26,041 nt of DNA, from NCBI GenBank assembly GCA_039715015.1, contig JBDLIE010000035.1:1-26041 (forward strand). The letters are read 5' to 3'. Below, piece after piece: positions 6,316-26,041 of this stretch. Made by a program: the position numbers and the translations under genes. Every line of letters starts with the position of its first letter. Position 1 is the first letter of the stretch. Source of the DNA: Thermodesulfobacteriota bacterium. Its GTDB lineage: Bacteria; Desulfobacterota; Desulfobulbia; Desulfobulbales; SURF-16. The notes beneath the pieces were generated by a model, which worked only from the letters and a program-made list of their open reading frames with translations, did no database searches and was not told the origin of the DNA.

Positions 6316-7401
6316 ATGAGTAGAAAAAAAGAAAAAAACCGAGATCTTCGCCTTGACCCGCTCTTTTTTATTGGCCGGCCCTTTGCGCCTCTTTATGGCG
6401 CAGCCATGGCAATGCGTGCCAGCTTATATGGAAAGGGTATTATGTCCCGTCATAGCCTGGGGGTGCCTGTTGTCAGCGTGGGCAATCTCACCATGGGCGG
6501 CACTGGGAAGACCCCCATGGTGATCTATCTTGCGCGTCTTCTAGACTCCTATAAAGTTGCCATTATCAGCAGGGGATACCGCGGTAAGGCCTGTGGCAAG
6601 GTTAATGTGGTCAGCAATGGTAGTTCAGTTTTACTGGATGCTGTCCAGGCAGGGGATGAGCCATATTTGATGGCTTCTCTTCTTCCCGGGGTGCCGGTTG
6701 TTACGGCTAAAAAAAGGGCTTTGGCTGGTTTCTACGGGGTTGAGGAGCTGGGGGCAGAGGTTGTTCTTCTTGATGATGGCTTCCAGCATCTTGCTGTGGA
6801 TCGTGATCTTGATATTGTCCTTTTTAAGGTGGACAGTTTTCTGGGGAATAATCGTGTCTTTCCGGGAGGGGATATGCGTGAGCCTCTGTCTGCCCTCAAA
6901 CGGGCCCATTGTTTTGTTCTGACATGTGTTGACGGAGAAAATAAGGAACGGGCCGAGGTATTGAGACAGGCTTTATCGAGACGCTTCCCGGAGGCGCCTG
7001 TTTTTTTCAGCGAATATAAGCCCTCCTGTCTCGTGGATGGAAAAGGCAAAGAGTATGCGCTGTCAACCCTTACCGGTCAAAGGGTCAATGCTTTTTGCGG
7101 TTTGGCCCAGCCTTCTTATTTTGAAAAGAGTCTCGAACAGGCTGATTTGACCGTAGAAAATTTCTCTGTTTATCCAGATCATCATCTCTATAGTGCTAAG
7201 CAAATTTCAGCTTTGGTCGATGCCGGTAGAGGAGGAACTGAAATCAAGGCCCTGGTGACCACGGAAAAGGATCTGGTCAAGGTGAAGGAGATCGGCTGTG
7301 ATCTGCCACTCTATGCCCTGAGGATGGATGTGGTGATGGAAAAGGGGTTTGACGATTTTCTTTTTGAACGTCTTGCTGTGGCGAAAAACCCTCATAAATA
7401 G
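6316..7401 (+). CDS. lpxK: Tetraacyldisaccharide 4'-kinase
   Basis: VGNLTMGGTGKTP, SRGY, GDEP, LDDGFQH, TTEKD motifs. Confidence 0.96.
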   Translation: MSRKKEKNRDLRLDPLFFIGRPFAPLYGAAMAMRASLYGKGIMSRHSLGVPVVSVGNLTMGGTGKTPMVIYLARLLDSYKVAIISRGYRGKACGKVNVVSNGSSVLLDAVQAGDEPYLMASLLPGVPVVTAKKRALAGFYGVEELGAEVVLLDDGFQHLAVDRDLDIVLFKVDSFLGNNRVFPGGDMREPLSALKRAHCFVLTCVDGENKERAEVLRQALSRRFPEAPVFFSEYKPSCLVDGKGKEYALSTLTGQRVNAFCGLAQPSYFEKSLEQADLTVENFSVYPDHHLYSAKQISALVDAGRGGTEIKALVTTEKDLVKVKEIGCDLPLYALRMDVVMEKGFDDFLFERLAVAKNPHK

Positions 7402-7435
7402 AGGCGGTTAGGGAGGATGTGTTTTTTTTGCCACA
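7377..7435. promoter_or_regulatory. Candidate enhancer (UAS) for a sigma54 activator: two imperfect TGTGGC-N6-GCCACA palindromes
   Basis: TGTGGCGAAAAACCCTCA (7377-7394) and TGTGTTTTTTTTGCCACA (7418-7435), centres 41 bp apart, upstream of the IHF and sigma54 sites. Confidence 0.5.
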
Positions 7436-7461
7436 CAATCAGGGGTGCAGGCCTTTATCTG

Positions 7462-7474
7462 TAAGTGCTTGATT
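7462..7474 (-). promoter_or_regulatory. IHF binding site
   Basis: Reverse strand reads AATCAA-GCAC-TTA, a perfect WATCAA-N4-TTR match, between the candidate UAS and the sigma54 promoter. Confidence 0.7.
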
Positions 7475-7513
7475 TTGCATGGTTTTAAATCTGAAAAAAT
7501 GTTTTCTTCCTTG

Positions 7514-7529
7514 TGGCACAGATGGTGCA
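7514..7529 (+). promoter_or_regulatory. sigma54 (-24/-12) promoter of lpxC
   Basis: TGGCACAGATGGTGCA, with GG (7515-7516), N10, GC (7527-7528). Confidence 0.75.
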
Positions 7530-7596
7530 CGAGACACCTGTGCAACACTTGAGTCATAAATGCCCTGCGGCGTTCCAGAAAACGAGAAAAGAAAGA

Positions 7597-8568
7597 ATGT
7601 GGCAACATACTGTTAAAAAAGAAATTTCATTTGCCGGCGTTGGCCTCCATAGCGGTAAGCCCGTGAAGATGGTGGTAAAGCCTGCAGATGCCAATACCGG
7701 TATCCGTTTCAAGCGGGTTGATTTAGGTAAAGATGCCCTTGTTCGTGCCTCCATGCGCCGGGTGAGTGATACTACTCTTGCCACCACCTTGTCTAAAGAC
7801 AACGTCTTTGTGGGTACCACCGAGCATTTGCTGGCTGCCCTTGGTGGCCTAGGTATTGATAACGTGATGGTGGAGTTGGACAGCGACGAGCTGCCCATTA
7901 TGGATGGCAGTGCTGGTCCTTTTGTGCAGGTTCTTAAGAAAAATAAAAAATCGCAGAAGGCCCCTCTGTTGATGATGAAAATCACCAAAGAGATGACCTT
8001 CAAGTCCGGTCATACTGAAATTCATGTGAAGCCTTTTGACGGGTTTAAGATTACCAGCAAGGTTCAGTTTGATCATCCGGTTATTAAGAGCCAGTCCTAT
8101 ACCGTTCAGGTTGATCAGGATTCCTTTGTGAAGGAGATCGCTTCGGCACGGACTTTTGGTTTCCTTGAGCAGGTAGAATATCTTCGTGCCAATGGTAAGG
8201 CTTTGGGCGGTTCCTTGGAAAATGCTGTTGTGATTGATAAGGATGGTGTGGTCAATGCCGAGGGCCTGCGTTTTGCCGATGAGTTTGCCCGCCATAAGAT
8301 TCTTGACCTTGTTGGCGATCTCGCCTTGCTTGGTTGCCCCCTCCTGGGCCATATCAGCGCCTCCCGTGGTGGCCATACCCAGCACGTTGCTTTCATGAGA
8401 ATGTTGGCTGAAAACCAGGATTGCTGGGAGCTTGTCAAGCGAAGTGAAGACGGTAAAGAAAGTGTCATAGATAAGATGAGAATGGCTACCAGGGCTGCAG
8501 GAAAAATGGTTCTGCCCTTTCTTTTGCCACCAGTTACCGGGCTTAGCTCTTCTAAAGCCACCTGCTGA
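7597..8568 (+). CDS. lpxC: UDP-3-O-acyl-N-acetylglucosamine deacetylase
   Basis: GVGLHSG, TTEHLLAAL, PIMDGSA, ARTFGF, HKILDLVGDL. Start moved to ATG 7597 (MWQHTVKK) because the longer ORF start overlaps the promoter. Confidence 0.96.
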   Translation: MWQHTVKKEISFAGVGLHSGKPVKMVVKPADANTGIRFKRVDLGKDALVRASMRRVSDTTLATTLSKDNVFVGTTEHLLAALGGLGIDNVMVELDSDELPIMDGSAGPFVQVLKKNKKSQKAPLLMMKITKEMTFKSGHTEIHVKPFDGFKITSKVQFDHPVIKSQSYTVQVDQDSFVKEIASARTFGFLEQVEYLRANGKALGGSLENAVVIDKDGVVNAEGLRFADEFARHKILDLVGDLALLGCPLLGHISASRGGHTQHVAFMRMLAENQDCWELVKRSEDGKESVIDKMRMATRAAGKMVLPFLLPPVTGLSSSKATC

Positions 8569-8588
8569 TTTTAAGGCATACGTAGTTA

Positions 8589-8633
8589 ACCAAAAAAGGC
8601 CCTGAAGGATATTCCTTCAGGGCCTTTTTTGGT
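8589..8633. terminator. Bidirectional intrinsic terminator
   Basis: Perfect 21-bp inverted repeat ACCAAAAAAGGCCCTGAAGGA-tat-TCCTTCAGGGCCTTTTTTGGT between convergent genes. Confidence 0.9.
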
Positions 8634-8653
8634 GTTTGTTGCCGGGAAAAAAT

Positions 8654-9049
8654 CTAGCTGTCTTTTTCCATGCTTGCAGTTAACTCTTCTTTTTCCTCAA
8701 GCATGGCGTTGCGTCCTGCTTCAATGGCTTCGCTCAGGGCATTCTTTTTGTCATCAAGGTAATCCTTGCCGCTGGTGGCCATCTCTGTGCCCTGCTCAAT
8801 GAGATCCCTGCCCCTATTGATTAGATCTCTTCCTCGATCAGCAATGTCCTCTGCAGAGCCGCGAAGACTGTCGGGAAGGTTCAGGTTGCGTGTTTTGTCT
8901 CGTAAATCATTGCCGTAATCAGAAAGTATTTCTCTGGTTTCTACACCGGTTTTGGGGGCATAGAGCAGGGCAAGGCCTGCGCCGATGACCGTGCCGGTAA
9001 GAAAAGAGAGAAGGGTGGTTCCTGATTCGCAGCGATCATCTCTGTGCAT
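8654..9049 (-). CDS. YtxH-like protein
   Basis: FLTGTVIGAGLALLYAPKTGVETRE signature followed by a helical repeat-like region; AAGGAG RBS. Confidence 0.88.
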   Translation of the reverse strand: MHRDDRCESGTTLLSFLTGTVIGAGLALLYAPKTGVETREILSDYGNDLRDKTRNLNLPDSLRGSAEDIADRGRDLINRGRDLIEQGTEMATSGKDYLDDKKNALSEAIEAGRNAMLEEKEELTASMEKDS

Positions 9050-9143
9050 GGTGTTTCTCCTTAATGAATGTTGAACTCTTGGAGGCGTGACGCGTAGATA
9101 CAGTGGCGTCGTCTAGCCGCCTGATTGCCAAAAGTAAATTTGA

Positions 9144-9521
9144 TTATTTTATGAAGAACTTTGTAAACGCTTTAATCCCTGCATTGATACTGGCAATCTG
9201 AATCAAGCTGGGAGAAATTTTATCTTTCAAGATATGGGTTGTTGCGAGCAGTACATGGCCGGCCTCTTGCACTTCATTAAAAAGCGTGTCGGTCTGGTCG
9301 ATCTTGTCGTTGATGGATGCAGCCATGATCTGTAGCTCTTCTGCTGTGTCCGTGGCAGATTTGATCAGTGGTTCTATTTCGGTATCAATATGTGCAATAG
9401 CTCCTTCCACTCTCTTAGCTGTTTTTCTTATTTGATGGAGGGTAGGTATAAGGCCTGCCACCAGAACAACAAAGGAAAAGGCGATAACGGCAAGGAAAAA
9501 TGTTGAGGGGGTCACGGTCAT
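9144..9521 (-). CDS. DUF948 (YtxG/YoxC-like) membrane-anchored coiled-coil protein
   Basis: N-terminal TM helix then a coiled coil; directly upstream of ytxH, the usual pairing. Confidence 0.72.
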   Translation of the reverse strand: MTVTPSTFFLAVIAFSFVVLVAGLIPTLHQIRKTAKRVEGAIAHIDTEIEPLIKSATDTAEELQIMAASINDKIDQTDTLFNEVQEAGHVLLATTHILKDKISPSLIQIASINAGIKAFTKFFIK

Positions 9522-9560
9522 GTTACTCCTTAAGGAGGATAATCTCTTGAAATAAAAGGG

Positions 9561-9607
9561 ATAGTCTAATTGACTATTATTCTCACATAAAGGTAGGCGT
9601 TTGTAAA
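9561..9607 (-). promoter_or_regulatory. Candidate sigma70 promoter plus palindromic operator for the DUF948-YtxH pair
   Basis: TTTACA (9607-9602)-N17-GAGAAT (9584-9579) with extended TG; ATAGTC-N5-GACTAT (9561-9577) covers the predicted +1. Confidence 0.4.
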
Positions 9608-9622
9608 TAAGACAGTTGTCGA

Positions 9623-11017
9623 TTAATTGCTTGGCGCCTTCTTTTTAATACCAAATTTTTTCATCTTGTATTGCAGGAGGCTTTTAGTAATTCCCAAACT
9701 GTCTGCAGCTTTAGTTTGGATATAGTCAGATTGTTCCATGGCGCGGACGATCATCTTTTTTTCCAGAGCGTTTAAGATGTCAGGCAGGCGGATATCAGGC
9801 TTGAAAATTTCATCAATATTGAAATGAGCATCAAGTTCCGGCTGGTGGGGGCTGATGGTGTCTGGCTGCACATCTTCAGGTTCTATGTTGTTGTTATTGC
9901 AGAGAATAGAGGCTCTCTCAATGGTGTTTTCAAGTTCCCTAATGTTTCCTTCCCAGGGAAGGCTGGAGAGGAAGCTGATAGATCCTTCGGAGATGATCAG
10001 GCCGGGTTTGTTCAATTGCTTGGCAAATTTGTCGACGAAATGAAGGGCCAAGAGCGGGATGTCGTCCATGCGCTCACGAAGGGGAGGGACATGGATGTTA
10101 AGAACATTGAGACGGTAATAGAGATCCTCACGAAAATTCCCCTGCTCCACCTCTTCTTTGAGTTCTTTATTGGTCGCGGCAATAATGCGGACATCAACGG
10201 CCAGTTCGGTTGAGCCTCCAACCCGTTCGAATTTTTTTTCCTGAATGATTCTAAGAAGTTTTGCCTGGAGTGCCAGGGGCATTTCACCAATTTCATCAAG
10301 GAAGAGGGTGCCGCCATCTGCCCTTTCAAAACGGCCTTTACGTAGGGCAACAGCGCCAGTAAAGGCGCCTTTTTCGTGGCCGAACAGTTCACTTTCCAGG
10401 AGTGAGTCAGGCAAAGCCGCACAATTAACAGAGATAAAGGGGCCGCCTTCCCTGTTGGAGTTGCAGTGGATGGCACGGGCAATGAGTTCCTTGCCGGTGC
10501 CACTCTCGCCAGTTATGAGGACTGAGGTGGGAGTAGGAGAGACCTTTTCGATGAGGGAGTAGATATCTTGCATGGTCCGGTTTTTGCCCACCATGCCGGC
10601 AAAGTCGCAGCGCTGTTTAGCTTCGCTGCGGAGGCGGATATTCTCCCTTAAAACAGAGTGGTGCTCAATGGCCTTATTGATATTGGCCAGTAGTTCGTCA
10701 TTTTTAAAGGGCTTGGTGAGAAAGTTGAAAGAACCAGCCTGCATGGCGGCAACGGCCTTGTCAACCTCGCCGAAGGCAGTCATCATAATAACCGGCAATT
10801 GTGGGCTCTGTTCTTTAATGTGGGAAAGGAGTTCCATCCCTCCCATGCCTGGCATCTGCATGTCAGTCAGGACCAGGTCGAGATCTGTTTTACTGCAAAT
10901 CTGCAAAGCATCCTCACCATTGTTAGCAGTGAAAACCTGAAAGCCTTCGTCATCGAGAAGCTCTTCCAGGACAATTAGATAGTTTGGCTCGTCATCGACT
11001 ATGAGAATAGTATGCAT
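9623..11017 (-). CDS. sigma54-dependent response regulator (NtrC/AtoC family; REC-AAA+-Fis HTH)
   Basis: ILIVDDE, DMQMPG, GESGTGKE, GAFTGA, LFLDEIGE, WEGNIRELEN, C-terminal HTH. Confidence 0.95.
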   Translation of the reverse strand: MHTILIVDDEPNYLIVLEELLDDEGFQVFTANNGEDALQICSKTDLDLVLTDMQMPGMGGMELLSHIKEQSPQLPVIMMTAFGEVDKAVAAMQAGSFNFLTKPFKNDELLANINKAIEHHSVLRENIRLRSEAKQRCDFAGMVGKNRTMQDIYSLIEKVSPTPTSVLITGESGTGKELIARAIHCNSNREGGPFISVNCAALPDSLLESELFGHEKGAFTGAVALRKGRFERADGGTLFLDEIGEMPLALQAKLLRIIQEKKFERVGGSTELAVDVRIIAATNKELKEEVEQGNFREDLYYRLNVLNIHVPPLRERMDDIPLLALHFVDKFAKQLNKPGLIISEGSISFLSSLPWEGNIRELENTIERASILCNNNNIEPEDVQPDTISPHQPELDAHFNIDEIFKPDIRLPDILNALEKKMIVRAMEQSDYIQTKAADSLGITKSLLQYKMKKFGIKKKAPSN

Positions 11018-11025
11018 GATCTCTT

Positions 11026-11883
11026 TTAGTGTTTAATGTTCATTTGTATCCGCTCCTGCAATTGTAGCAGGACATCAAGGGGGACGCGTTGTTTTTTTTG
11101 CATGGTGCCCAGGCGGGTCCCGGGCCTGATGTCACCATGGTAGTCACTGCCGCCGGTGATAACCAGCTTCTCCTTTTCACACAAAGAGAGAAGTAGTTTG
11201 CGTAAGCCGGGAGAATGAACGGGGTAATACGCCTCTATACCATCAAGGCCCATCTCCACAAATTCACGGATGAGGTCAATGGTCATGTTTTTGTCCAGGG
11301 GGATGGTGCCTGGGTGAGCCAAAATAGCAAGGCCTCCAGCCCTGTGGATGATAGTTATAGCATCAGAAACCGGTAGTTTCTCCCTGGCGGCATAGGCTGG
11401 TCTATCTTTGCGCAGATACTTGTCAAAGGCGCTTTGCATGTTCTTCACTTTGCCAAGGCTGATAAGAAGTTGGCCGAAATGGGGGCGGCCAACAACACCA
11501 TCGCCTGCCAGGGACTGCATCTCGCTATATGTAACGTCAATGCCAAGGTCAAAGAGGTTCGCAATTATTTTCTCATTACGTTTTTTTCTGGTCTGCTGAA
11601 GATGTTCAAGGCTTTTTCTGAGGGACATATCCTCGGGATCAAAGCCGTAGCCAAGGATGTGAATGGGGATGTCACCATGGTTGGCACTGAGTTCGACACC
11701 GGAAAGCGCCGGCAAGCCTACCTTCTGAGCTGCGGAGAGAAGTTCCGGGACACCATCCACGGTGTCATGGTCTGTTAAAGCAAGACCGCCGAGATTCTCC
11801 TGGCAGGCCATCTCGACAAGCTCGGTGGGTGTCATGGTGCCATCGGAGAAGATAGAGTGGCAATGAAGATCAATATATTGCAT
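11026..11883 (-). CDS. PHP-domain metal-dependent phosphoesterase (TrpH/YciV-like)
   Basis: IDLHCHSIFSDG, LTDHDT, GRPH, LAHP, GGSDYHG; start moved to ATG 11883. Confidence 0.9.
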   Translation of the reverse strand: MQYIDLHCHSIFSDGTMTPTELVEMACQENLGGLALTDHDTVDGVPELLSAAQKVGLPALSGVELSANHGDIPIHILGYGFDPEDMSLRKSLEHLQQTRKKRNEKIIANLFDLGIDVTYSEMQSLAGDGVVGRPHFGQLLISLGKVKNMQSAFDKYLRKDRPAYAAREKLPVSDAITIIHRAGGLAILAHPGTIPLDKNMTIDLIREFVEMGLDGIEAYYPVHSPGLRKLLLSLCEKEKLVITGGSDYHGDIRPGTRLGTMQKKQRVPLDVLLQLQERIQMNIKH

Positions 11884-12204
11884 GTTTTTTCGTTTTTGCC
11901 GGTGGCTGAGATAGGTATGAAAGAAAAATATCCTAACGCGGTAGATCTCTGGCTGCAAGGGGTAATCAGGTGGGGAAAAAGATTACCGGAATTTGCAAAG
12001 GCTCAAATGTAATTAAATGAAATCAAGTTGTTGGGTGCAATGAGAGCTTTTCTGGCATGCTGTTATTCGTTGATGTAAATGGATGGGGCGTGCTATAGTG
12101 ATTATTGCTGTTTGGTGACAGGCAGGGGGCAAATACTCCTTGTTTGTAGATTTTTTGAGATGGGGTGGGCAGTCGCAGGGGTCCACCGAAAACGGAGGTT
12201 GTCA

Positions 12205-13287
12205 ATGGCACAGATAGATGCCTTTTTTAAACTGATGAACGAACAAGGTGCTTCTGACCTTCATATGATTGCCGGTCAGAAACCCATTTTGCGTATTCGT
12301 GGCGATATTGAGAGGGTAAAATATAAAGTTCTCGACAATGATGAACTCAAGGCCATGGTCTATGAGATTATCACTGAGGAAAAGGCCAAGAAGTATGAGG
12401 AGACAGGCGACATTGACTTCGGTTATGAGATCCCTGGTCTGGCCCGGTATCGTGGCAACCTCTTTCAACAGAAATATGGCGTTGGTGCGGTTTTTCGTGA
12501 GATTCCCAGTGAAATTCAAAGCGTCCAAGCCCTCAATCTTCCCTCGGTTGTCGGCAAGCTCTCCCAGCTCCCCAAGGGTATGGTTCTGGTGACCGGACCT
12601 ACCGGTTCTGGTAAGTCAACCACACTGGCCGCCATTGTTGATGAATGTAATAGGACCCGTAGTGACCATATCCTCACCATTGAGGATCCCATCGAATTTG
12701 TTCATCGCAGTCAGCTCTCCGTGGTTAACCATCGTGAGGTGGGAACCCACACCAAGAGCTTTTCCGCGGCTCTGCGCGGCGCACTCCGTGAAGATCCCGA
12801 TATTATCCTGGTTGGTGAGATGCGTGACCTTGAGACCATTTCTCTGGCCATGGAGGCGGCCATGACCGGCCATCTCGTCTTTGGTACCCTTCATACCCTG
12901 AACGCTGCTAAGACGGTTGATCGTATTATTGAGATCTTCCCTGCCGAGCAGCAGTCCCAGGTTCGTTCCACCCTGGCTGATGCCCTCAAGGCCGTTGTCT
13001 CCCAGACCATTTTTAAACGGGTCGATGTTAAGGGCCGTTGTGCCGCCCTGGAGATCCTCATCTGCACACCGGCGGTCCGTAACCTCATCCGTGAGGGTAA
13101 GACCTATCAGATTCCCTCGGCCATGCAGACCGGTAAGAAGTACGGTATGCAGACCCTTGATGATGCTATTATGGATTATCTCCAGCGTGGCTGGATATCT
13201 CCCGACGATGCCTATATGCATTGTATTGAGAAGAGTAAATTTGTTCAGTTTCTCAGGAAGCCACCCACCGACTTTACTGATATCTAA
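12205..13287 (+). CDS. pilT: Type IV pilus retraction ATPase
   Basis: ASDLH, GPTGSGKSTT, TIEDPIE, LREDPDIILVGEMRD, GTLHT, AVRNLIRE, GMQT; GGAGG RBS before ATG 12205. Confidence 0.95.
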   Translation: MAQIDAFFKLMNEQGASDLHMIAGQKPILRIRGDIERVKYKVLDNDELKAMVYEIITEEKAKKYEETGDIDFGYEIPGLARYRGNLFQQKYGVGAVFREIPSEIQSVQALNLPSVVGKLSQLPKGMVLVTGPTGSGKSTTLAAIVDECNRTRSDHILTIEDPIEFVHRSQLSVVNHREVGTHTKSFSAALRGALREDPDIILVGEMRDLETISLAMEAAMTGHLVFGTLHTLNAAKTVDRIIEIFPAEQQSQVRSTLADALKAVVSQTIFKRVDVKGRCAALEILICTPAVRNLIREGKTYQIPSAMQTGKKYGMQTLDDAIMDYLQRGWISPDDAYMHCIEKSKFVQFLRKPPTDFTDI

Positions 13288-19077: not shown

Positions 19078-19152
19078 GGCCCCTTCGTCTAGCGGTCAGG
19101 ACACCGGCCTCTCACGCCGGGAACAGGGGTTCGATTCCCCTAGGGGTCACCA
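19078..19152 (+). tRNA. tRNA-Glu (anticodon CTC)
   Basis: Acceptor stem GGCCCCT/AGGGGTC, anticodon arm CCGGC-CTCTCAC-GCCGG, T arm AGGGG-TTCGATT-CCCCT, encoded CCA end. Confidence 0.97.
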
Positions 19153-19162
19153 TGAATATAAC

Positions 19163-19202
19163 AACGGGAAATCAAGCTTTTAAGTTTGGTTTCCCGTTTT
19201 TA
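19163..19202 (+). terminator. Terminator hairpin after the tRNA
   Basis: AACGGGAAATCAAGCTT-tt-AAGTTTGGTTTCCCGTT followed by a T tract (two G-T pairs). Confidence 0.75.
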
Positions 19203-19403
19203 TTTGGTGGGTTTGAGGGTGATAATTTACCATAAATTCTTGGTAAATTATGGGTAATTTGTCAAAGAAGGTTTTGTCTTCATCGGGGGCGCAAATATAA
19301 AATTCCTTCCTGGAACAACCAGGAACGGAAAGCGGCTTGCCTCCGGGAAGAGAGGCCTCTTGTCACTTATGTGCTGGCCAACCTTCCACATCATTGCAGC
19401 TAT

Positions 19404-19964
19404 GCTCCAGCCGAGGATCTCAAGTATCCTTTCGGCATATCGCACTATGCCCGCGGATTTGCCTATGTCCGCAAAGGTGATGTTGCTAGATCAGAAGCTG
19501 AGCTTGCACAGCTAAGAGTCCTAGCCGACGATCCCGATGGGGCGAACGTGAAGATTTGGGGAGAGGAACAACGGTTCGGCCCTGCTGAGCATCGCTGTGG
19601 AAGTAATGTGGAAGTAATAGCGGGAGAGATCGCTGTCGCCCCAAAAGACATCGATGCGGCGTACGCTCACTTCAAGAGAGGCGTTGATCCACAGGACAAC
19701 CTGCTTTTCGATGAGCCACAGAGCTGGGACTATCCGGTTCGTCAGTCTTTGGGAGCGCTGTTGCTCGATTTCAACCGAATCGAAGAGGCTGAGGCTCTCT
19801 TCCGTAAGGATCTGCTGAAGAACGCTGATAATCCTTGATCCCTTTATGGCTTGGCCCTGTGTCTGAAGACTAAAGGGGCATCCGCCTTGGCTATCGACAC
19901 AGAGAAAAGCTTCCGCCGTGTCTGGGCCTGCGCCGACCTAAAGCAGGATCGTCCGGTATTCTAA
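19404..19964 (+). pseudogene. 3' fragment of a TPR-protein paralog
   Basis: Aligns to the C-terminal part of the gene at 22945-23493 (40/45 identical aa over LLFDEP...NP). 5' part missing, +1 frameshift near 19560, 11-bp tandem duplication at 19596-19617, Trp->TGA at 19836-19838; homology continues to RPVF-TAA (19964). Confidence 0.88.
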
Positions 19965-20130
19965 TTTTTTAGGATTATTCCAACCTCATTGACGAGTAGA
20001 CATGACCATGTGAGGCAGTTCAAGCGTGGCCTGGCCATGAGAGTCCGTCCGAGAATGACCTTTTCCCATTTATCCCCTGGGTGTTCCACATCTTTCTCAC
20101 CAGCGATAAGGAGCGGGTCGATGGTAAGAA

Positions 20131-21432
20131 TCAGTTCCTGTCTCCAATTGGGGCTGCAAAAGCATCTCTAACTAAGGTTTCGACATTATCACCTGTCAAC
20201 GATTCCAAAAAGGCAACAATGTCATTCATTTCCATGTTAGTCAGCCCTAACGGAGTTATTATTTTGTCCAGCTGTGGATTGGCGAATCCCCCCTGATTAT
20301 AAAACGTGACTACGTCTAAGAGAGTGCCGAACTTGCCGTTATGCATGTATGGGCCGGTCAGCGCCACATTACGAAGGGTAGGGGTTTTATAGCTCCAGCG
20401 GTGGGCGGGGTTCAAGGTTACCTCGTAACGTCCGATATCTCGTGGCCGGGGTTCACCAACGCTATCGATTAGCTTAGTTGGCACCCGCAGCATTACTCCT
20501 GGAGCCAGCTGCACTGGATAGTCAGCCGGTTCATCCCCCATTGACGCATGCCAGCCTACTCCGGTGTTATGGAAGGAATCATCAGTGAAGAGTGCATACG
20601 TTTCATCAATCGTGTGGCAGATTGAGCAGCTCCCCTTCCCCGTAAAGAGCTTAAAACCTCTCTTTGCTGATTCGTCGAGTGCTTTTTTGTCTCCACCATA
20701 ATACCAACGATCGAAAGATGAATTTCCTGAGACCAAGGTGCGCTCATAGGCCGCAATAGCCATGCCTATTGTCTCTATCCCAAGTCCACGTCCGTCGAAA
20801 GCATCTTCAAACAGACCCTTATAGCCTGAAAGGTTGCGGATTTTTTCGATGATCCAGCCTATGCTCGGGTTTGCCATCTCGTTCGATGCCAGCATAGGTC
20901 CCCAGATCTGAAGCTCCAGACGATTCTCTCTGCCGTCATGAAAAATATTGGAGAAATAGGCGACGTTGTAGATTGTTGGTGAATTGCGTCTGACAGTGCG
21001 CCCCTCGATACCGACTGCAGTTTTAAGTTCGTTATTGGTGAAACCCTGCTCCGGCACATGGCACATGCCACAAGACATGGTGCCGTTCAGCGACAGTCTC
21101 CGGTCAAAAAACAACTTGCGCCCGAGCTGCACTTTTTTAAAGGTCATGGGATTGTCGGCTGGAACCGGGACGGGCGGCAACCCAAGGGGCGGTGACTGCA
21201 GCACCCTCAACAGGTCTGCCGGTTCACCCTTTCGCCGCAACAGGCTAATGGAACGGGTCTCATATTCAGTTGATTCGTAGCCCTCCCTCATGTCCCCTGG
21301 GCCATACTCCACTTCCGAGCCAAACACATGACAGGAAGACGAACATATAAGTCCTGCGAGGAGGGCGATTATAACGCTCCGGACGATATGACCTCGGAGT
21401 GCTGATTTACTTGCTTTTAGTAATGGGATCAT
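20131..21432 (-). CDS. mauG: MauG-family diheme cytochrome c peroxidase-like protein
   Basis: LGRKLFFDRRLS, CGMCH, RNSPT, FHDGR, CSICH, KTPTLRNVALTGPYMHNG; signal-like N-terminus; overlaps the 3' end of the SBP56 gene. Exact start uncertain. Confidence 0.85.
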   Translation of the reverse strand: MIPLLKASKSALRGHIVRSVIIALLAGLICSSSCHVFGSEVEYGPGDMREGYESTEYETRSISLLRRKGEPADLLRVLQSPPLGLPPVPVPADNPMTFKKVQLGRKLFFDRRLSLNGTMSCGMCHVPEQGFTNNELKTAVGIEGRTVRRNSPTIYNVAYFSNIFHDGRENRLELQIWGPMLASNEMANPSIGWIIEKIRNLSGYKGLFEDAFDGRGLGIETIGMAIAAYERTLVSGNSSFDRWYYGGDKKALDESAKRGFKLFTGKGSCSICHTIDETYALFTDDSFHNTGVGWHASMGDEPADYPVQLAPGVMLRVPTKLIDSVGEPRPRDIGRYEVTLNPAHRWSYKTPTLRNVALTGPYMHNGKFGTLLDVVTFYNQGGFANPQLDKIITPLGLTNMEMNDIVAFLESLTGDNVETLVRDAFAAPIGDRN

Positions 21433-22753
21433 TGTTCTTATAAAGGGAATAGGCACCAAACTTCATTAGATGCGCTCGCCCTAGCTTCTGCTTAATGAAA
21501 TCAATTTTAAAACGCTCTTTAAGCTCTTTCCCATCCCATTCGTAGCCTTTCAGAAACTGTTCATTCTCATCACCCTTCTTGTCCCAGTTGGAAAGAAGTG
21601 AGCTGGTAAAATACAAGCGTTTACCGTCCCAACTGGATGAGACCATGTTTACCTGGGAGCCGATCTTTTTTTCGTAAACTTGGACAGGGTGGAAGGGGTC
21701 TGTAACATCAAAGGCACGCACCTTCCCATCCATAAAGGTATCTATCCAGAGTAATTTGTCATCGGAAGAAATGGAAAAAGCCACCGGCAAAGGAACTTGG
21801 GCGGGGTCACCGATATCTGCAACTTCAGAGGCCTTCCACTCATCCTTATCGTTACGGTGAATAAGCCAGATTTTCGAGGTAAGAGCCGTGGTCGTAAAAC
21901 AGTAATCATGCTCAGGCTGCAAAGCCCAACGTATTTCGAGTGGTGCTCCAGGAACGTCAAAAATTTTTAAAGGCTTGCGATTGCTCATACGCCACACGAT
22001 GACCGTATTGCCGAACCTTTTCATTGCTTGTTCATCTTTGAACATCTTGCCAAAGTCCATCATATAATTGGACCAGCCAGTAAAAGACGAGGTAATCATG
22101 ACATCCAGTCTCGGCATAAAGCGCAAATCATAACTGTATCCATCTGCATACTTTCCTGTCTTTTCGGCGCCCTGGAGATTATCATCAGTCGGCATCCAAT
22201 AGGTGGTAACGTATTCTCCTTCGGCTGTGTACTCGACAAGGGCCGAGCGGCCACCATGGTCGCGGTTGTTTGAAAGGCCGGTAATGAGCATACGATCCTG
22301 CCGGGGCATGACGGTATGGGGCCCCACTACGCCACCGCTTTTTGCCACGAAATCATGAATGGTTTTGACCAGCCGCGGTTTGGCAGGGTCAGTGTGTATG
22401 TCAAAGATAAAGATCTTGCTGGTGTCAAGCGTGGCACCCCAAAGATAATGCCGATCATGACTAAAGCCTGAGTGATGTGCCTCATTACGCCCTCCAACCG
22501 ATACGGAATGTATGACTTTACCAAAGTCTGCCGATTTAGGGTTTACATCAACTGTAACCAGTTTATCCTGCTCGTCGCCGACACCTTCCATGCCGAGAGT
22601 CCAAATATAGATGAAATCCTCCTGCCCGGTGATCTTGATCATATCAGGTGGCATATTGGTCTCGTCAGCCTGTCCAGAAATAGGTAGTAGGACGAAAATC
22701 GTCATGCTAATGGCTACTAGAATTGTATTAAGTAATTTTCTTGTTGTAGTCAT
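21407..22753 (-). CDS. mtoX: Methanethiol oxidase-like protein (SBP56/SELENBP1 family), exported
   Basis: Signal peptide then DET...ITGQEDFIYIWTLG, EAHH, GPHT, TSSFTGWSNYMMDFGKM, VPGAPLEIRW, TSSLLSNWDKKG, LGRAH; strong AAGGAGG RBS; next to mauG. Confidence 0.88.
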   Translation of the reverse strand: MTTTRKLLNTILVAISMTIFVLLPISGQADETNMPPDMIKITGQEDFIYIWTLGMEGVGDEQDKLVTVDVNPKSADFGKVIHSVSVGGRNEAHHSGFSHDRHYLWGATLDTSKIFIFDIHTDPAKPRLVKTIHDFVAKSGGVVGPHTVMPRQDRMLITGLSNNRDHGGRSALVEYTAEGEYVTTYWMPTDDNLQGAEKTGKYADGYSYDLRFMPRLDVMITSSFTGWSNYMMDFGKMFKDEQAMKRFGNTVIVWRMSNRKPLKIFDVPGAPLEIRWALQPEHDYCFTTTALTSKIWLIHRNDKDEWKASEVADIGDPAQVPLPVAFSISSDDKLLWIDTFMDGKVRAFDVTDPFHPVQVYEKKIGSQVNMVSSSWDGKRLYFTSSLLSNWDKKGDENEQFLKGYEWDGKELKERFKIDFIKQKLGRAHLMKFGAYSLYKNNDPITKSK

Positions 22754-22944
22754 TGGCCTACCTCCTTTTTGCAGATATAATCAGACAGATTAAGATTTAT
22801 ATGTTTTTGGGGCATATCTCGATCTCAATAGATCCACATAACAAGCTGAAGGATTACTCCTAAAATGAAATAAAAGAGCCAGATTACCACCTATTATTAG
22901 GCTACCTTGGTATTTCATTGAAATCCGTGGCTTTCCGATAAGAA

Positions 22945-24646
22945 TCAGAACACCGGACGAGACATCTCCAAATCGGCACGAGTCCAGGCGCGGCGAAAGC
23001 GTTTCTCCGTGTCGGTGGCCAAAACAGTTGCCCCTCTGATCTTCAGACACTTTGCCAAGCCATAGAGGGACCATGGATTCTCAGCATTTTTCAGCAGGTC
23101 CTTGCGAAAAACGGCCTCAGCCTCTTCGATTCGGTTGAGATCGAGCAACAGCGCTCCCAAAGACTGACGAACTGGATAGTACCAGCTTGGTGGCTCATCG
23201 AAGAGAAGCCCCTCCTGAAGAACTACACCTTGCTTCAAGTGCGCGATCGCTGCCTCGGCATCTCCTTTAGCGGTTGCGATTTCCGCCGCCAGGACTTCTA
23301 CAGCGATGCTCAGCAATGCCGAACCGCTATTCAGTTCCCAAATCTTGACAGCCTTTACAGCGGGATCTGCCGCCAAATCTTTCAGTTTTCCAAGCTCCAT
23401 TTCTGCTTTAACAATATTTCCCTTGCGGACATAGGCAAAGCCTCTGGCATAGTGCCACATCCCCAATGGGTACTTGAGATCCGCGGCTGGGGCAGGTTCG
23501 GCAAGGACTTTGTCCCATTTTCCAAAACGCACCAAAGCGTAGTAAGGTGCCAGATAGTATAGCTGCAGGGCGCCCATTCCAGGTTGGCGCATCGTATCCG
23601 GATCAATCCCCGCAGCCAAGGACCTAGCCGCAGCAAAGCTTTCCTGAGAGCGCCCTTCCATCATGTAGCTAGCCAGCAGAAAGTGAAAGTTGTGAGGCAT
23701 ATAACCCACTTGGTAGAGACCGCTGCTGTTGAAGGAGGCACGCAAATTTTTGTCCACTCCTATCGCCTCTTCATTAACGGTGCTGCAATCATGGTAGAGT
23801 CCAGCTGCGTAATAGCCATGGCCTGCCATGTGGACCAGATGCCCAAGAGGCCGGAGCAAGCCTTCGGATAATATCAGCGCTTTTAATCGTGGCTTCCGGC
23901 TTGGGAGAATTTTCCAGGAGGTGGATATAAAGGTGGTGTCCGTGCGGGTGATTAGGGTGATTTGTCACAACTTTTTCCAGAATTGATTCGATCTCAGGCT
24001 CCCAGGGTTGCTCCTGCCCCTTGTCGGTCCAGTAATTCCAGGGATGGAGATCCATAAGCGATTCCGCAAAGATAACAGCTACGTTTGGATCATTGGGGTA
24101 GCGCTGGTAAACTTTTCTCATTTTATCAGCGAAGGCCTTATCGAGTGAGGAACGGTCGGGCATCGGGGAAGGTGAATAGCGGACTGCCAGAGCTTCAATC
24201 AGCGCCCGTTCTTTCTTCGTTACTTTTCCGGCAAGTGCTAACGATTTTTGAACCAAAGCATAGGCCCGTGGCACATCGGCGTCGTTCATTGTGGCATTGA
24301 TGTTCGGCCCAAGGACGAAAGCAACTCCCCAGTAAGCCATGGCGCATTCGGGATCATGTCTGGCGGCCTCCATAAAGGAGATTTCCGCATCAGCATGATC
24401 AAATCCGTAGGTAAGAACCAGAGCCTGGTTGAAAAAAGCTTGTGCTTTTTTACTGTCGGTTGTGATGGGATAGTCCAAGGAAAAGAGCCCTTCGAGTAGG
24501 GGCACTTCATTTGAGGTTAGGGAAGATGGTCCATGTAGCCCTTCTATCGACCAGGCCGTTTGTGAGGAGTAGATAGTAAAAAAAACTACATTAAAAAGGG
24601 CGCAAACAGTCAGCGCAACGGGGTTTCTTAATAACGATTTTTTCAT
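22945..24646 (-). pseudogene. Exported His-rich TPR-repeat protein, split by a single +1 frameshift
   Basis: The two ORFs join as ...IRRLAPAS|GHLVHMAGH... if one T of TCT-T-GGG (23845-23846) is removed, giving 566 aa from ATG 24646. Motifs DPECAMAYWGVA, HPWNYW, HLYIHLLE, HNFHF, DEPPSWYYPVRQSLG. Confidence 0.8.
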
Positions 24647-25133
24647 TTGGACACCTTCTACTGTGATATGTAAATAACTGATCCCTATGCCAAATTTATA
24701 CTCGGATAACATTCATCCATGATGGATAGCCGGATACAGAATAACAACACATGATCCAAATTCCAGCTGAACTTGTCCGCCGGAATATATGCCCCTCTCC
24801 TTCGCGATTATTGCAAAAAATACGCCAGTTGCGTGGTTATACTGTTCTAACCAGCAAGCAGTGGTGCTCCATGTATCCGTGGCCATAGTAAAGCAATGCG
24901 AAAAGGGAGAGAGGTATTCGGAATTATGGAATTACAGCGAAAATCGCATATCAAAAATACGCTTTTCCGGATTTTTCACAAATGCGTTTTGCAATTAGTT
25001 TTCATGGCAAACGAAGTAGACAGGCTACCTGCATAACCGGATATCACTCAAAATAGGGAGCTAGCCGGAAAATCGATAACATTCCGCCATTCATTTTTCG
25101 ACCACCTAAACCACCAACCGAACCACCAAAAAT

Positions 25134-26041
25134 GTGGTTCTCAACCCAATACGGGAGGTTTTCGGATGGACGAGAAAAATAAACACACTTCAACCCCCAA
25201 AACCGGCACATTATTCCAGTGCGGAAAACGCATGGAATAATGTGGCGTGTGGTCGAAATTGTTTAGTTGCGAACGGGAGTGAGCAGGTGGACAATTTCGA
25301 TGTGCGTAAGCACAAACACGCCACAAGCAATCTACAATCAAAAAACCAAAGGGATCTAAAAAAAAATTTACACGAAGCCTATGGTTATATCCGAGAAGTC
25401 AGAGAGCATTTAAAATACTGGCAGCAACCTACTGAGGAGACAACGCGTCAATATTCATTGGCTTTGAAGAGATTGATCAAAAGCGGTCTCTGGCCAGAGC
25501 AATACGCACAAACAAAACGCGGCTTCTATTTTTACAGGGCCGCAGTCGTCAACATGTCCCTGCATTAACTATAGCAACGAATTGTACAGATCAACAAGTT
25601 ACAAAGGAAAAAGGATCTCAGTTGGATCGATATTGCCTTTGACTTAAAAGACTTTCTTAGAAAAGTAAGAATCTATCCTCCTGACCAGAAGCAAAGCCAT
25701 CTTACAAAAAACATTAGCAGTCTGTGGACGTCCGATGGAAAAAATCCTCGTTCAACAGCCAAACGTAAAGGATTGGGTACCTTGCCTAAAAACTGGAGGC
25801 GAATTTTCTGGGATAACATTCCAGAAAATTCGCCTCACCGGTTGTCAATTGCCCTTCTTTCGATAACTGGTTGTCGTCCCAGTGAACTGAAAAATTGGGT
25901 CATAATAGAACTCACAGACAAAACCAAACTCAAGATTTCCATCTTTGGCTCCAAAACTCGAAAAGGCAAATATGGACAACAAATTCGGGTTTAGACCATT
26001 GATCCACAAACCGAAGAAGCTCGTTATATCCTTCGATGATT
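25134..26041 (+). pseudogene. Tyrosine recombinase/integrase pseudogene, truncated by the window end
   Basis: ORFs 25134-25568 and 25773-25994 are in the same frame, separated by stops TAA 25566 and TAG 25572; further stops TAG 25992 and TGA 26037. Catalytic box I motif ITGCRPSEL, then a candidate catalytic Lys (GSKT). True start uncertain. Confidence 0.75.

Follow-up and report, generated by a model that had tools for sequence, protein, structure and literature searches.

The stretch of DNA considered here (hereafter, the window) is the whole of contig C35, 26,041 bp in length, from a metagenome-type assembly of 3.01 Mb in 100 contigs with an estimated completeness of 99.99% and contamination of 0.53%. 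On its minus strand, the window carries two overlapping genes, mtoX and mauG, predicted to encode a methanethiol oxidase of the SBP56 family and the MauG-like di-haem protein that may mature it. Judged by sequence, this MtoX belongs to a distinct subfamily that is poor in cysteine, has no SCO1 and is linked to sulfate reducers, termed D-type in the following, and thus represents a variant of a known system. The features making up the module are:

21407..22753, minus strand: mtoX, encoding a D-type MtoX (SBP56 family) of 448 amino acids from an ATG start, assigned by Pfam, NCBIfam and alignment
20131..21459, minus strand: mauG, encoding a MauG-like di-haem protein of 442 amino acids from a TTG start, in which no SCO1/SenC domain is present, assigned by Pfam (CCP_MauG)
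22761..22766, minus strand: ribosome-binding site AGGAGG, 7 nucleotides 5' of the mtoX ATG, read from the sequence

Both genes correspond to full open reading frames (ORFs) recognized by profiles, and the description of an intact, overlapping mtoX- and mauG-like pair in a first-pass annotation of the window therefore stands. The MtoX sequence was matched by Pfam SBP56 with a score of 161.7 bits and by the NCBIfam equivalog profile for MtoX (NF052453) with a score of 711.8 bits, above the cut-off of 650 and across profile positions 2-407 of 408. The only solved structure that it matched was 2ECE (E 1e-20). All of the motifs previously listed for the protein were located, namely, AHH (residues 92-94), GPH (144-146), RAH (426-428), FTGW (224-227) and SNWDK (388-392), such that His93, His94, His146 and His428, the proposed copper ligands, as well as Trp227 and Trp390, the proposed quinone precursor, are all retained. 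As for the export signals assigned earlier to both proteins, both N-termini look Sec-like by eye, and the predicted DET start of mature MtoX is that of the methanethiol oxidase (MTO) of Hyphomicrobium. A scan for sigma-70 promoters revealed none on the minus strand between mtoX and the tetratricopeptide repeat (TPR) protein gene that lies 5' to it (the overall number of predictions, 11, did not exceed that in shuffled sequences, 7.4 +/- 2.6). At 22870-22886, on the minus strand 5' of mtoX, a TGGC-N8-TTTCA element that loosely resembles a sigma-54 promoter, with the -12 GC being absent, was noted by eye.

The MauG-like protein was matched by Pfam CCP_MauG with a score of 169.8 bits and fell below the curated cut-offs both for MauG (TIGR03791; 216.2 vs. 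443.85 bits) and for MbnH (TIGR04039; 235.5 vs. 362.85 bits). The more likely start of the gene, given its alignment with the starts of relatives, is the ATG at 21432, within the last 26 nucleotides of mtoX; the overlap between the two genes is thus 26 nucleotides from this ATG or 53 from the TTG. A putative signal peptide, judged by eye, is followed by a conserved linker, GPGD..YETRS..PPLGLP, and by two haem motifs, C130xxC133H134 and C278xxC281H282. Both CxxCH motifs and Tyr387 are kept in all 51 MtoX-linked MauG sequences aligned, two truncated rows having been dropped. Tyr387 aligns with the Met of the KIMGS motif in Geobacter MacA, presumably the Met that serves as haem ligand in the peroxidases and in place of which MauG uses Tyr. 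The protein resembles MauG of the methylamine dehydrogenase system (e.g., PDB 3L4M) and MbnH (PDB 6E1C) in its di-haem CCP_MauG fold, in its two CxxCH motifs, in the Tyr at the peroxidase Met site and in its presumed role, i.e., the oxidation of Trp residues in a partner protein. Unlike MauG, it finds better matches in the PDB among bacterial cytochrome c peroxidases (153 bits) than with MauG itself (88 bits), and its presumed partner is an SBP56 propeller, whereas the known partners of MauG and MbnH are MADH and MbnP.

To place the MtoX of the window, the query was compared with 120 database hits and seven loci, giving 128 rows with a few duplicates among them. Of these, 67 rows were found to carry what is referred to here as the M-P/A-F signature (D-type), with the remaining 61 being canonical. 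The His/Trp set (HHHWWH) is kept in each of the 128 rows, as in a second set (81/81). By contrast, Cys33 is present in none of the 67 D-type rows vs. all 61 canonical rows, while Cys276 and Cys285 occur together in only seven D-type rows vs. all canonical ones, so eroded is this pair. The mature part of canonical MtoX contains exactly three Cys residues in 61/61 rows, whereas D-type proteins contain none (8 rows), one (41 rows), two (16 rows) or three (2 rows). In an alignment of the clade, these losses stand among clade-wide replacements at columns showing at least 95% conservation in the other sequences. At the mature N-terminus, C33 is replaced by N/G and Y37 by D/N, turning ADETC.SPYM into A[DN]ET[NG]..[DN]M; near His93/94, D99 is replaced by H/Q/F; directly after His146, Y149-A150..G153 becomes M-P..D; and, further along, N217 is replaced by D and D325-I326 by A-F. 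In the window's protein, Asn33 and Asp37 stand where the canonical TCxSPYM motif has Cys and Tyr, giving a local reading of N-M-P-P-D-M, the loop after His146 reads M149-P150..D153 and positions 325-326 are A-F. A single Cys remains in the mature protein, with the change C276W being specific to its lineage.

Gene order sets the D-type loci apart as well. In the window and in 15 of the 16 other D-type loci, mauG directly follows mtoX, the exception being one locus (L109) with no mauG within 2,256 nucleotides of mtoX. A SCO1 domain was found in none of these 16 loci, nor between or beside the two genes of the window, vs. a SCO1 domain between mtoX and mauG in 77 of the 77 canonical loci with mauG in the flank; of the remaining canonical loci, 34 are without mauG in the flank and 33 are too short to tell. 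The gammaproteobacterial loci of the canonical type (L005-L081; Methylobacter, Methylomonas, Methylotuvimicrobium and Thiocapsa) encode SCO1-MauG fusions, as exemplified by the 631-residue product of the gene downstream of mtoX in L005 (Pfam). Their MtoX proteins are 67-74% identical, and their MauG domains 54-65% identical, to those of the window, and linker and gene order are the same. Indeed, D-type MauG keeps the linker that comes after SCO1 in the fusions. The gammaproteobacterial systems are distinguished by the N-terminal SCO1 domain of about 200 residues and by an MtoX that has exactly three Cys residues when mature and whose third His is followed by a YAL.G loop. No other neighbor is shared by more than three of the 17 D-type loci, and neither a cytochrome nor a cupredoxin gene is conserved among them. 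The only recurrent neighborhood, seen at three loci (L003, L102 and L112), comprises NUDIX hydrolase and aldo-keto reductase genes after the module. In another locus (L004, positions 10040-12721), found on an 825-kb contig, three successive frames matching PF03098 (animal haem peroxidase) lie 1.4 kb 3' of the D-type module; these could be one broken or mis-called gene beside that for an H2O2-producing enzyme.

The best genome matches to the MtoX of the window came from three metagenome-assembled genomes (MAGs), assigned to Thermodesulfobacteriota (82% identity), Desulfobacterales (77%) and a 'delta proteobacterium' (74%), the last of these sequences being that on the 825-kb contig. These were followed by 77 records of gammaproteobacterial type. 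The D-type accordingly accounts for 3 of 80 genome loci and for 13 of the 80 best metagenome loci. Every D-type member with a named taxon belongs to the Desulfobacterota, the proteins named by NCBI being from Desulfobacterales (2 rows). A quick maximum-likelihood analysis of 82 rows grouped the window with the three MAGs in a single clade (SH-aLRT support, 100; stem length, 0.51). The MtoX phylogeny called for by the first-pass annotation thus defined the D-type clade well, yet left its branching order relative to the gammaproteobacterial groups unsettled. All three of the other D-type host genomes contain dsrA and all three encode COX1-family oxidases. The assumption that the window holds a standard MtoX-MauG pair from aerobes was not sustained, the subfamily being associated with Desulfobacterota and having neither SCO1 nor the Cys on which the studied enzyme depends.

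Within the clade, pairs for which dS could be estimated gave ratios of nonsynonymous to synonymous substitution (dN/dS) of 0.055-0.103 in the case of mtoX and of 0.089-0.111 in that of mauG, all further pairs being saturated, and both of the mtoX differences seen in one public sequencing run (X1) were synonymous (2/2). In the four D-type genomes, MauG departs from the consensus at 0-3 of 97 conserved columns. These values indicate that the mtoX-mauG pair is under purifying selection, in line with the hint of selection in the first-pass annotation, which had proposed that dN/dS be determined.

The host is supported by sequence as an anaerobic, Desulfobulbaceae-like sulfate reducer of the Desulfobacterota. 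The named top matches of RpoD, encoded on the same contig, came from Desulfobulbaceae (89% and 79%), Desulforhopalus (78%), Desulfurivibrionaceae/Desulfurivibrio (73%) and 'Thermodesulfobacteriota'. The genome contains dsrA, scoring above the cut-off with 574.7 bits, and an adjoining dsrB-like frame, together with a gene for cytochrome bd subunit I (532.6 bits), while COX1 gave no match. The earlier view of a probable anaerobic member of this phylum is hence upheld by each of the checks then suggested, namely, host taxonomy, dsr genes and terminal oxidases, subject to the caution due to any metagenome-type assembly. As for proteins of copper handling, two NosL matches but no PCuAC were found in the genome, with SCO1-SenC matches elsewhere in the genome being limited to two that are weak and partial (25.7 and 23.4 bits).

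Comparison with studied enzymes puts these traits in context. According to the main text of Eyice et al. (ISME J, 2018; PMC5739008), the MTO of Hyphomicrobium sp. VS is a periplasmic copper enzyme with His89, His90, His140 and His412, for which sulfide is a competitive substrate, with DETXNSPF being its sequenced N-terminus; the same text describes the mtoX-SCO1/senC-mauG arrangement as 'highly conserved'. The module of the window is like this operon in encoding an SBP56-clade protein with four His and two Trp, predicted to be periplasmic and to begin with DET when mature, and in having a mauG-like gene downstream in an operon-like unit. It is unlike it in the absence of SCO1/SenC and in the Asn that follows DET, where the X of the Hyphomicrobium sequence is presumed to be Cys. 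The hosts differ too, one being a dsrA-bearing, Desulfobulbaceae-like bacterium and the other an aerobic methylotroph. In RpMTO (SPOA0269) of Ruegeria pomeroyi DSS-3, a cluster 2 enzyme, Cys28 in the motif TCQSPYM is reported to be required for activity and to carry a Cys-S-S-CH3 adduct with methanethiol, the product being sulfane sulfur (mBio, 2024; PMC10936201). RpMTO shares the same His/Trp set, offset by 4-5 residues (His88/89, 141 and 424; Trp223 and 386). Its Cys28 corresponds, by numbering offset and motif, to column 33 here, i.e., the column in which the window has Asn and no D-type row has Cys. Human SELENBP1 and archaeal SBP56 (2ECE) belong to the same superfamily and are also without Cys at the TCxSPYM column (2ECE reads ..YPSPKM..), but they reside in the cytoplasm, lack a MauG partner and show much greater sequence divergence. 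Neither 'Desulf' nor 'Deltaproteobacteria' appears in the main text of PMC5739008 and, supplements aside, no report was found in the literature of MtoX in sulfate reducers or of a SCO1-less, Cys-less type.

The absence of Cys from the TCxSPYM column in the D-type, with eight of the 67 rows being free of Cys when mature, means that the Cys-S-S-CH3 route cannot operate in these proteins, leaving the metal/quinone site as the sole basis of their chemistry. Moreover, because SCO1 and the three cysteines were lost together, the helper in canonical systems may serve those thiols. This suggests that the canonical SCO1/thioredoxin-fold protein attends to the three cysteines as much as to copper delivery. 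Since SCO1 and Cys were jointly lost in just one evolutionary event, this provides a lead rather than proof.

The module lies in a region that begins after a tRNA gene and that contains the following additional features:

19078..19152, plus strand: tRNA-Glu (anticodon CTC), identified by ARAGORN and Rfam (tRNA, 62.3 bits), the last element of a syntenic rpoD-malQ-tRNA block
19163..19198, plus strand: terminator-like hairpin, directly after the tRNA
19371..19961, plus strand: remnant of a TPR gene, comprising the C-terminal third only and interrupted by an in-frame stop codon (19836-19838); it makes up the left arm of an inverted repeat
22945..24712, minus strand: gene for an exported TPR protein, 5' of mtoX, in the window divided into ORFs of 307 and 304 amino acids; the right arm of the repeat is formed by its 3' third

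The tRNA after which the module was earlier noted to lie was thus identified. The rpoD-malQ-tRNA-Glu block is common to six of seven genomes of the genus. Nucleotide homology to these relatives stops about 100 nucleotides past the tRNA, by about position 19250, with the continuation differing between genomes. The MtoX profile found no match in any of 60 relatives, of which 7 belong to the genus, 29 to the family and 24 to the order, and exceeded the cut-off in only two of 401 genomes sampled from the phylum, that of the window (G000) among them; the MtoX of genome G456 is also above this cut-off (701.8 bits). The distribution is patchy elsewhere as well, the 30 relatives of the nearest D-type host genome being without MtoX. 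Horizontal acquisition, as originally put forward, is in line with these findings. The term island, used at the same time, fits only in part. The module is adjacent to a tRNA and missing from relatives, yet no integrase, attachment (att) repeat or compositional anomaly was found. The tetranucleotide distance of the 5.9-kb region was at the 85th percentile and that of the module at the 69th, both within the range of the genome, while an integrase-like motif at 25773-25994 that had been considered found no support in Pfam or PHROGs. The far border of the variable region lies past the contig end at 26041.

The two TPR features are related. The remnant shares 65% protein identity with residues 123-304 of the right-hand copy, and the arms of the inverted repeat around mtoX-mauG (19403-19969 and 22940-23494) are 73-82% complementary. 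Two copies so diverged (about 75% identity in DNA and 65% in protein) and in inverted orientation around the module suggest that, at the site of insertion, two TPR genes underwent rearrangement or recombination long ago. In the window, the right-hand gene is split by one extra base at 23845 that is lacking in independent contigs of two public runs. Without this base, the gene is a single frame of 588 residues, full homologues being of about 565 residues. The frameshift thus probably reflects either a minor variant or an error of assembly, the gene probably being intact in nature, and, given a probable single-base error of this sort, other apparent frameshifts in the genome merit the same check. 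Accordingly, the earlier description of the module as lying among pseudogenes holds for 19371-19961, a true remnant, but not for 22945-24712. The argument that mtoX and mauG had stayed intact while their neighbors decayed is at best half right, resting as it did largely on that same frameshift. The TPR protein was also entertained as a conserved third partner of the module; however, it recurs only at L108, after mauG, and at no other D-type locus, its family being widespread and unnamed.

Toward the end of the contig, the sequence appears less secure. In run X1, sequencing depth was 75 over the core of the contig, 65-70 over 19.1-25.0 kb and 32 after 25038, with both core and region after the tRNA being absent from a second run (X2). 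Among the public runs found to hold the sequence, none was of RNA. Contigs of the public runs showed alternative continuations at 25038, 25836 and 25943. As such, the segment 25038-26041 looks strain-variable or mis-joined; the two ORFs that it contains (25134-25568 and 25773-25994) gave no family hits. At the tRNA itself, the contigs of three genus relatives (G001, G003 and G007; L083-L085) end within about 120 nucleotides of the malQ end, at tRNA-Glu, and throughout the genus the region that follows this tRNA may either vary or be difficult to assemble.

Taken together, the reading that we favor, albeit with modest confidence, is that of a two-gene module under purifying selection, composed of a D-type periplasmic MtoX and its maturing MauG, that was gained horizontally after tRNA-Glu by a Desulfobulbaceae-like sulfate reducer. 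In the mechanism envisaged, MtoX would be exported by Sec and cleaved before DET, after which MauG, using H2O2 or O2 with a reductant, would cross-link and oxygenate Trp227 and Trp390 in the periplasm. The metal site would be loaded without a dedicated SCO1, NosL-type chaperones being encoded elsewhere in the genome. The D-type enzyme would still oxidize methanethiol, and probably sulfide, by drawing on traces of O2 at oxic-anoxic interfaces, such that toxic thiol and O2 could be removed together, with the remainder being handled by cytochrome bd and peroxidases. Several points weigh against this proposal. No COX1-family haem-copper oxidase was found in the host genome despite its completeness, and free copper is scarce in sulfidic habitats. 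The lost Cys, Tyr and SCO1, along with the changes near His93/94 and His146, might reflect another substrate or acceptor instead of the same reaction. The Sec-type signal and mature start of MtoX (MTTTRKLL...ISGQA, followed by DET) were judged by eye, and the MtoX tree came from a quick search that left out one row containing a stop codon and relied on two long branches for its root. As to a mobile origin, no mobility genes were detected by Pfam (E up to 10) or PHROGs among the ORFs of 24.7-26.0 kb, and no att site or direct repeat involving the tRNA was seen in the window. None of the public contigs bridges the tRNA junction, the pieces ending at 19114 and resuming at 19126. Finally, even for canonical MtoX, a Trp-derived quinone made by MauG is presented in the main text of PMC5739008 only as a proposal.

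Some of these same observations would fit an enzyme that has taken on a new function, such as the variant with another electron acceptor raised in the first-pass annotation. With its MauG-made quinone, it would serve either as an O2-independent dehydrogenase that reduces periplasmic cytochromes at the expense of methanethiol or some other small compound of sulfur, or as an enzyme for a different substrate, in both cases allowing sulfate reducers to deal with volatile thiols anaerobically. The known enzymes with a tryptophan tryptophylquinone cofactor are dehydrogenases. The catalytic Cys missing from every D-type row, the Cys pair being mostly gone, the lack of SCO1 at all 16 loci, the clade-wide changes beside the His ligands (D99 to F/H and those at Y149-A150..G153 and D325-I326), the presence of dsrA in all four D-type genomes and the missing haem-copper oxidase of the window's host would all be accounted for. 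Such a shift is nonetheless considered unlikely, as all rows retain the four His residues thought to hold an O2-reactive copper, the conserved neighbors include neither a cytochrome nor a cupredoxin gene, the COX1-family enzymes of the three other hosts make O2 or NO part of their life, and the protein of the window scores above the MtoX equivalog cut-off. A bolder version, in which D-type MtoX and SCO1-less MauG constitute a separate, Cys-free and possibly O2-free enzyme class of sulfate-reducing Desulfobacterota that oxidizes methanethiol or a related sulfur compound at a metal/quinone site and delivers electrons to periplasmic cytochromes, must be deemed quite unlikely. That the genes are functionless passengers that arrived on mobile DNA and are drifting toward loss is extremely improbable. 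The adjoining gene remnant, the inverted-repeat rearrangement and the loss of conserved cysteines, including by the lineage-specific C276W, might be so interpreted. However, both frames are intact and preceded by a strong ribosome-binding site, dN/dS is of the order of 0.05-0.11, MauG differs at only three of 97 conserved columns, and the supposed losses are common to a whole subfamily represented by dozens of intact genes.

One could also ask whether the stretch from 19.15 to 26 kb derives from another organism in the sample and was joined to the contig at a shared tRNA sequence during assembly or binning. The breaks of public contigs at the tRNA, past which several different continuations are seen, the relatives' contigs that also end right past it, the fall in depth after 25038 and the fragmentation of the assembly into 100 contigs would be expected in such a case. 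This explanation is nevertheless very unlikely. A false join at the tRNA is rendered unlikely by the similar depth on its two sides in run X1, both sides being, moreover, missing together from run X2. Tetranucleotide composition and the low contamination estimate are also at odds with a foreign origin of the stretch within the sample, as is the fact that the nearest named MtoX relatives are all from Desulfobacterota, one of them on an 825-kb contig and the three genomes all with dsrA.

If the favored reading is correct, the consequences would extend beyond the window. Methanethiol occupies a central place among the intermediates of the sulfur cycle and is produced in the anoxic, sulfidic sediments in which D-type hosts live, and the sole bacterial enzyme identified as destroying it has so far been linked to aerobes. 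Found in dozens of public metagenome sequence clusters, the D-type would place part of methanethiol turnover, or of O2 and thiol detoxification, in the sulfate-reducing guild, where volatile sulfur compounds may, to judge from these sequences, be handled in a different way. Surveys that count mtoX as a marker of aerobic methanethiol oxidation would need to keep the D-type apart. In having had Cys and SCO1 removed with the His/Trp site and MauG kept, the D-type moreover amounts to a natural experiment that bears on competing views of MtoX, i.e., Cys-persulfide vs. copper/quinone chemistry, and on the role of SCO1 in these operons. Were the bolder version to prove true, the D-type would be the missing enzyme for anaerobic methanethiol degradation by sulfate reducers, while the canonical 'copper chaperone' would really service the thiols of the enzyme.

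In seeking a source of the module, the MtoX of G097, another genome of the phylum, was considered and set aside, being of the canonical type, accompanied by SCO1 but no mauG and falling outside the D-type clade. At this locus (L099; C30:298000-315000), the region 7152-11055, on the minus strand, contains a canonical-type mtoX preceded by a gene for a flavin monooxygenase (FMO-like and possibly of the Tmm type). SCO1 alone follows mtoX, with no mauG in the flank, and is in turn followed by a gene for an H+-pyrophosphatase; many overlapping ORFs were seen in this genome, possibly reflecting a high G+C content.

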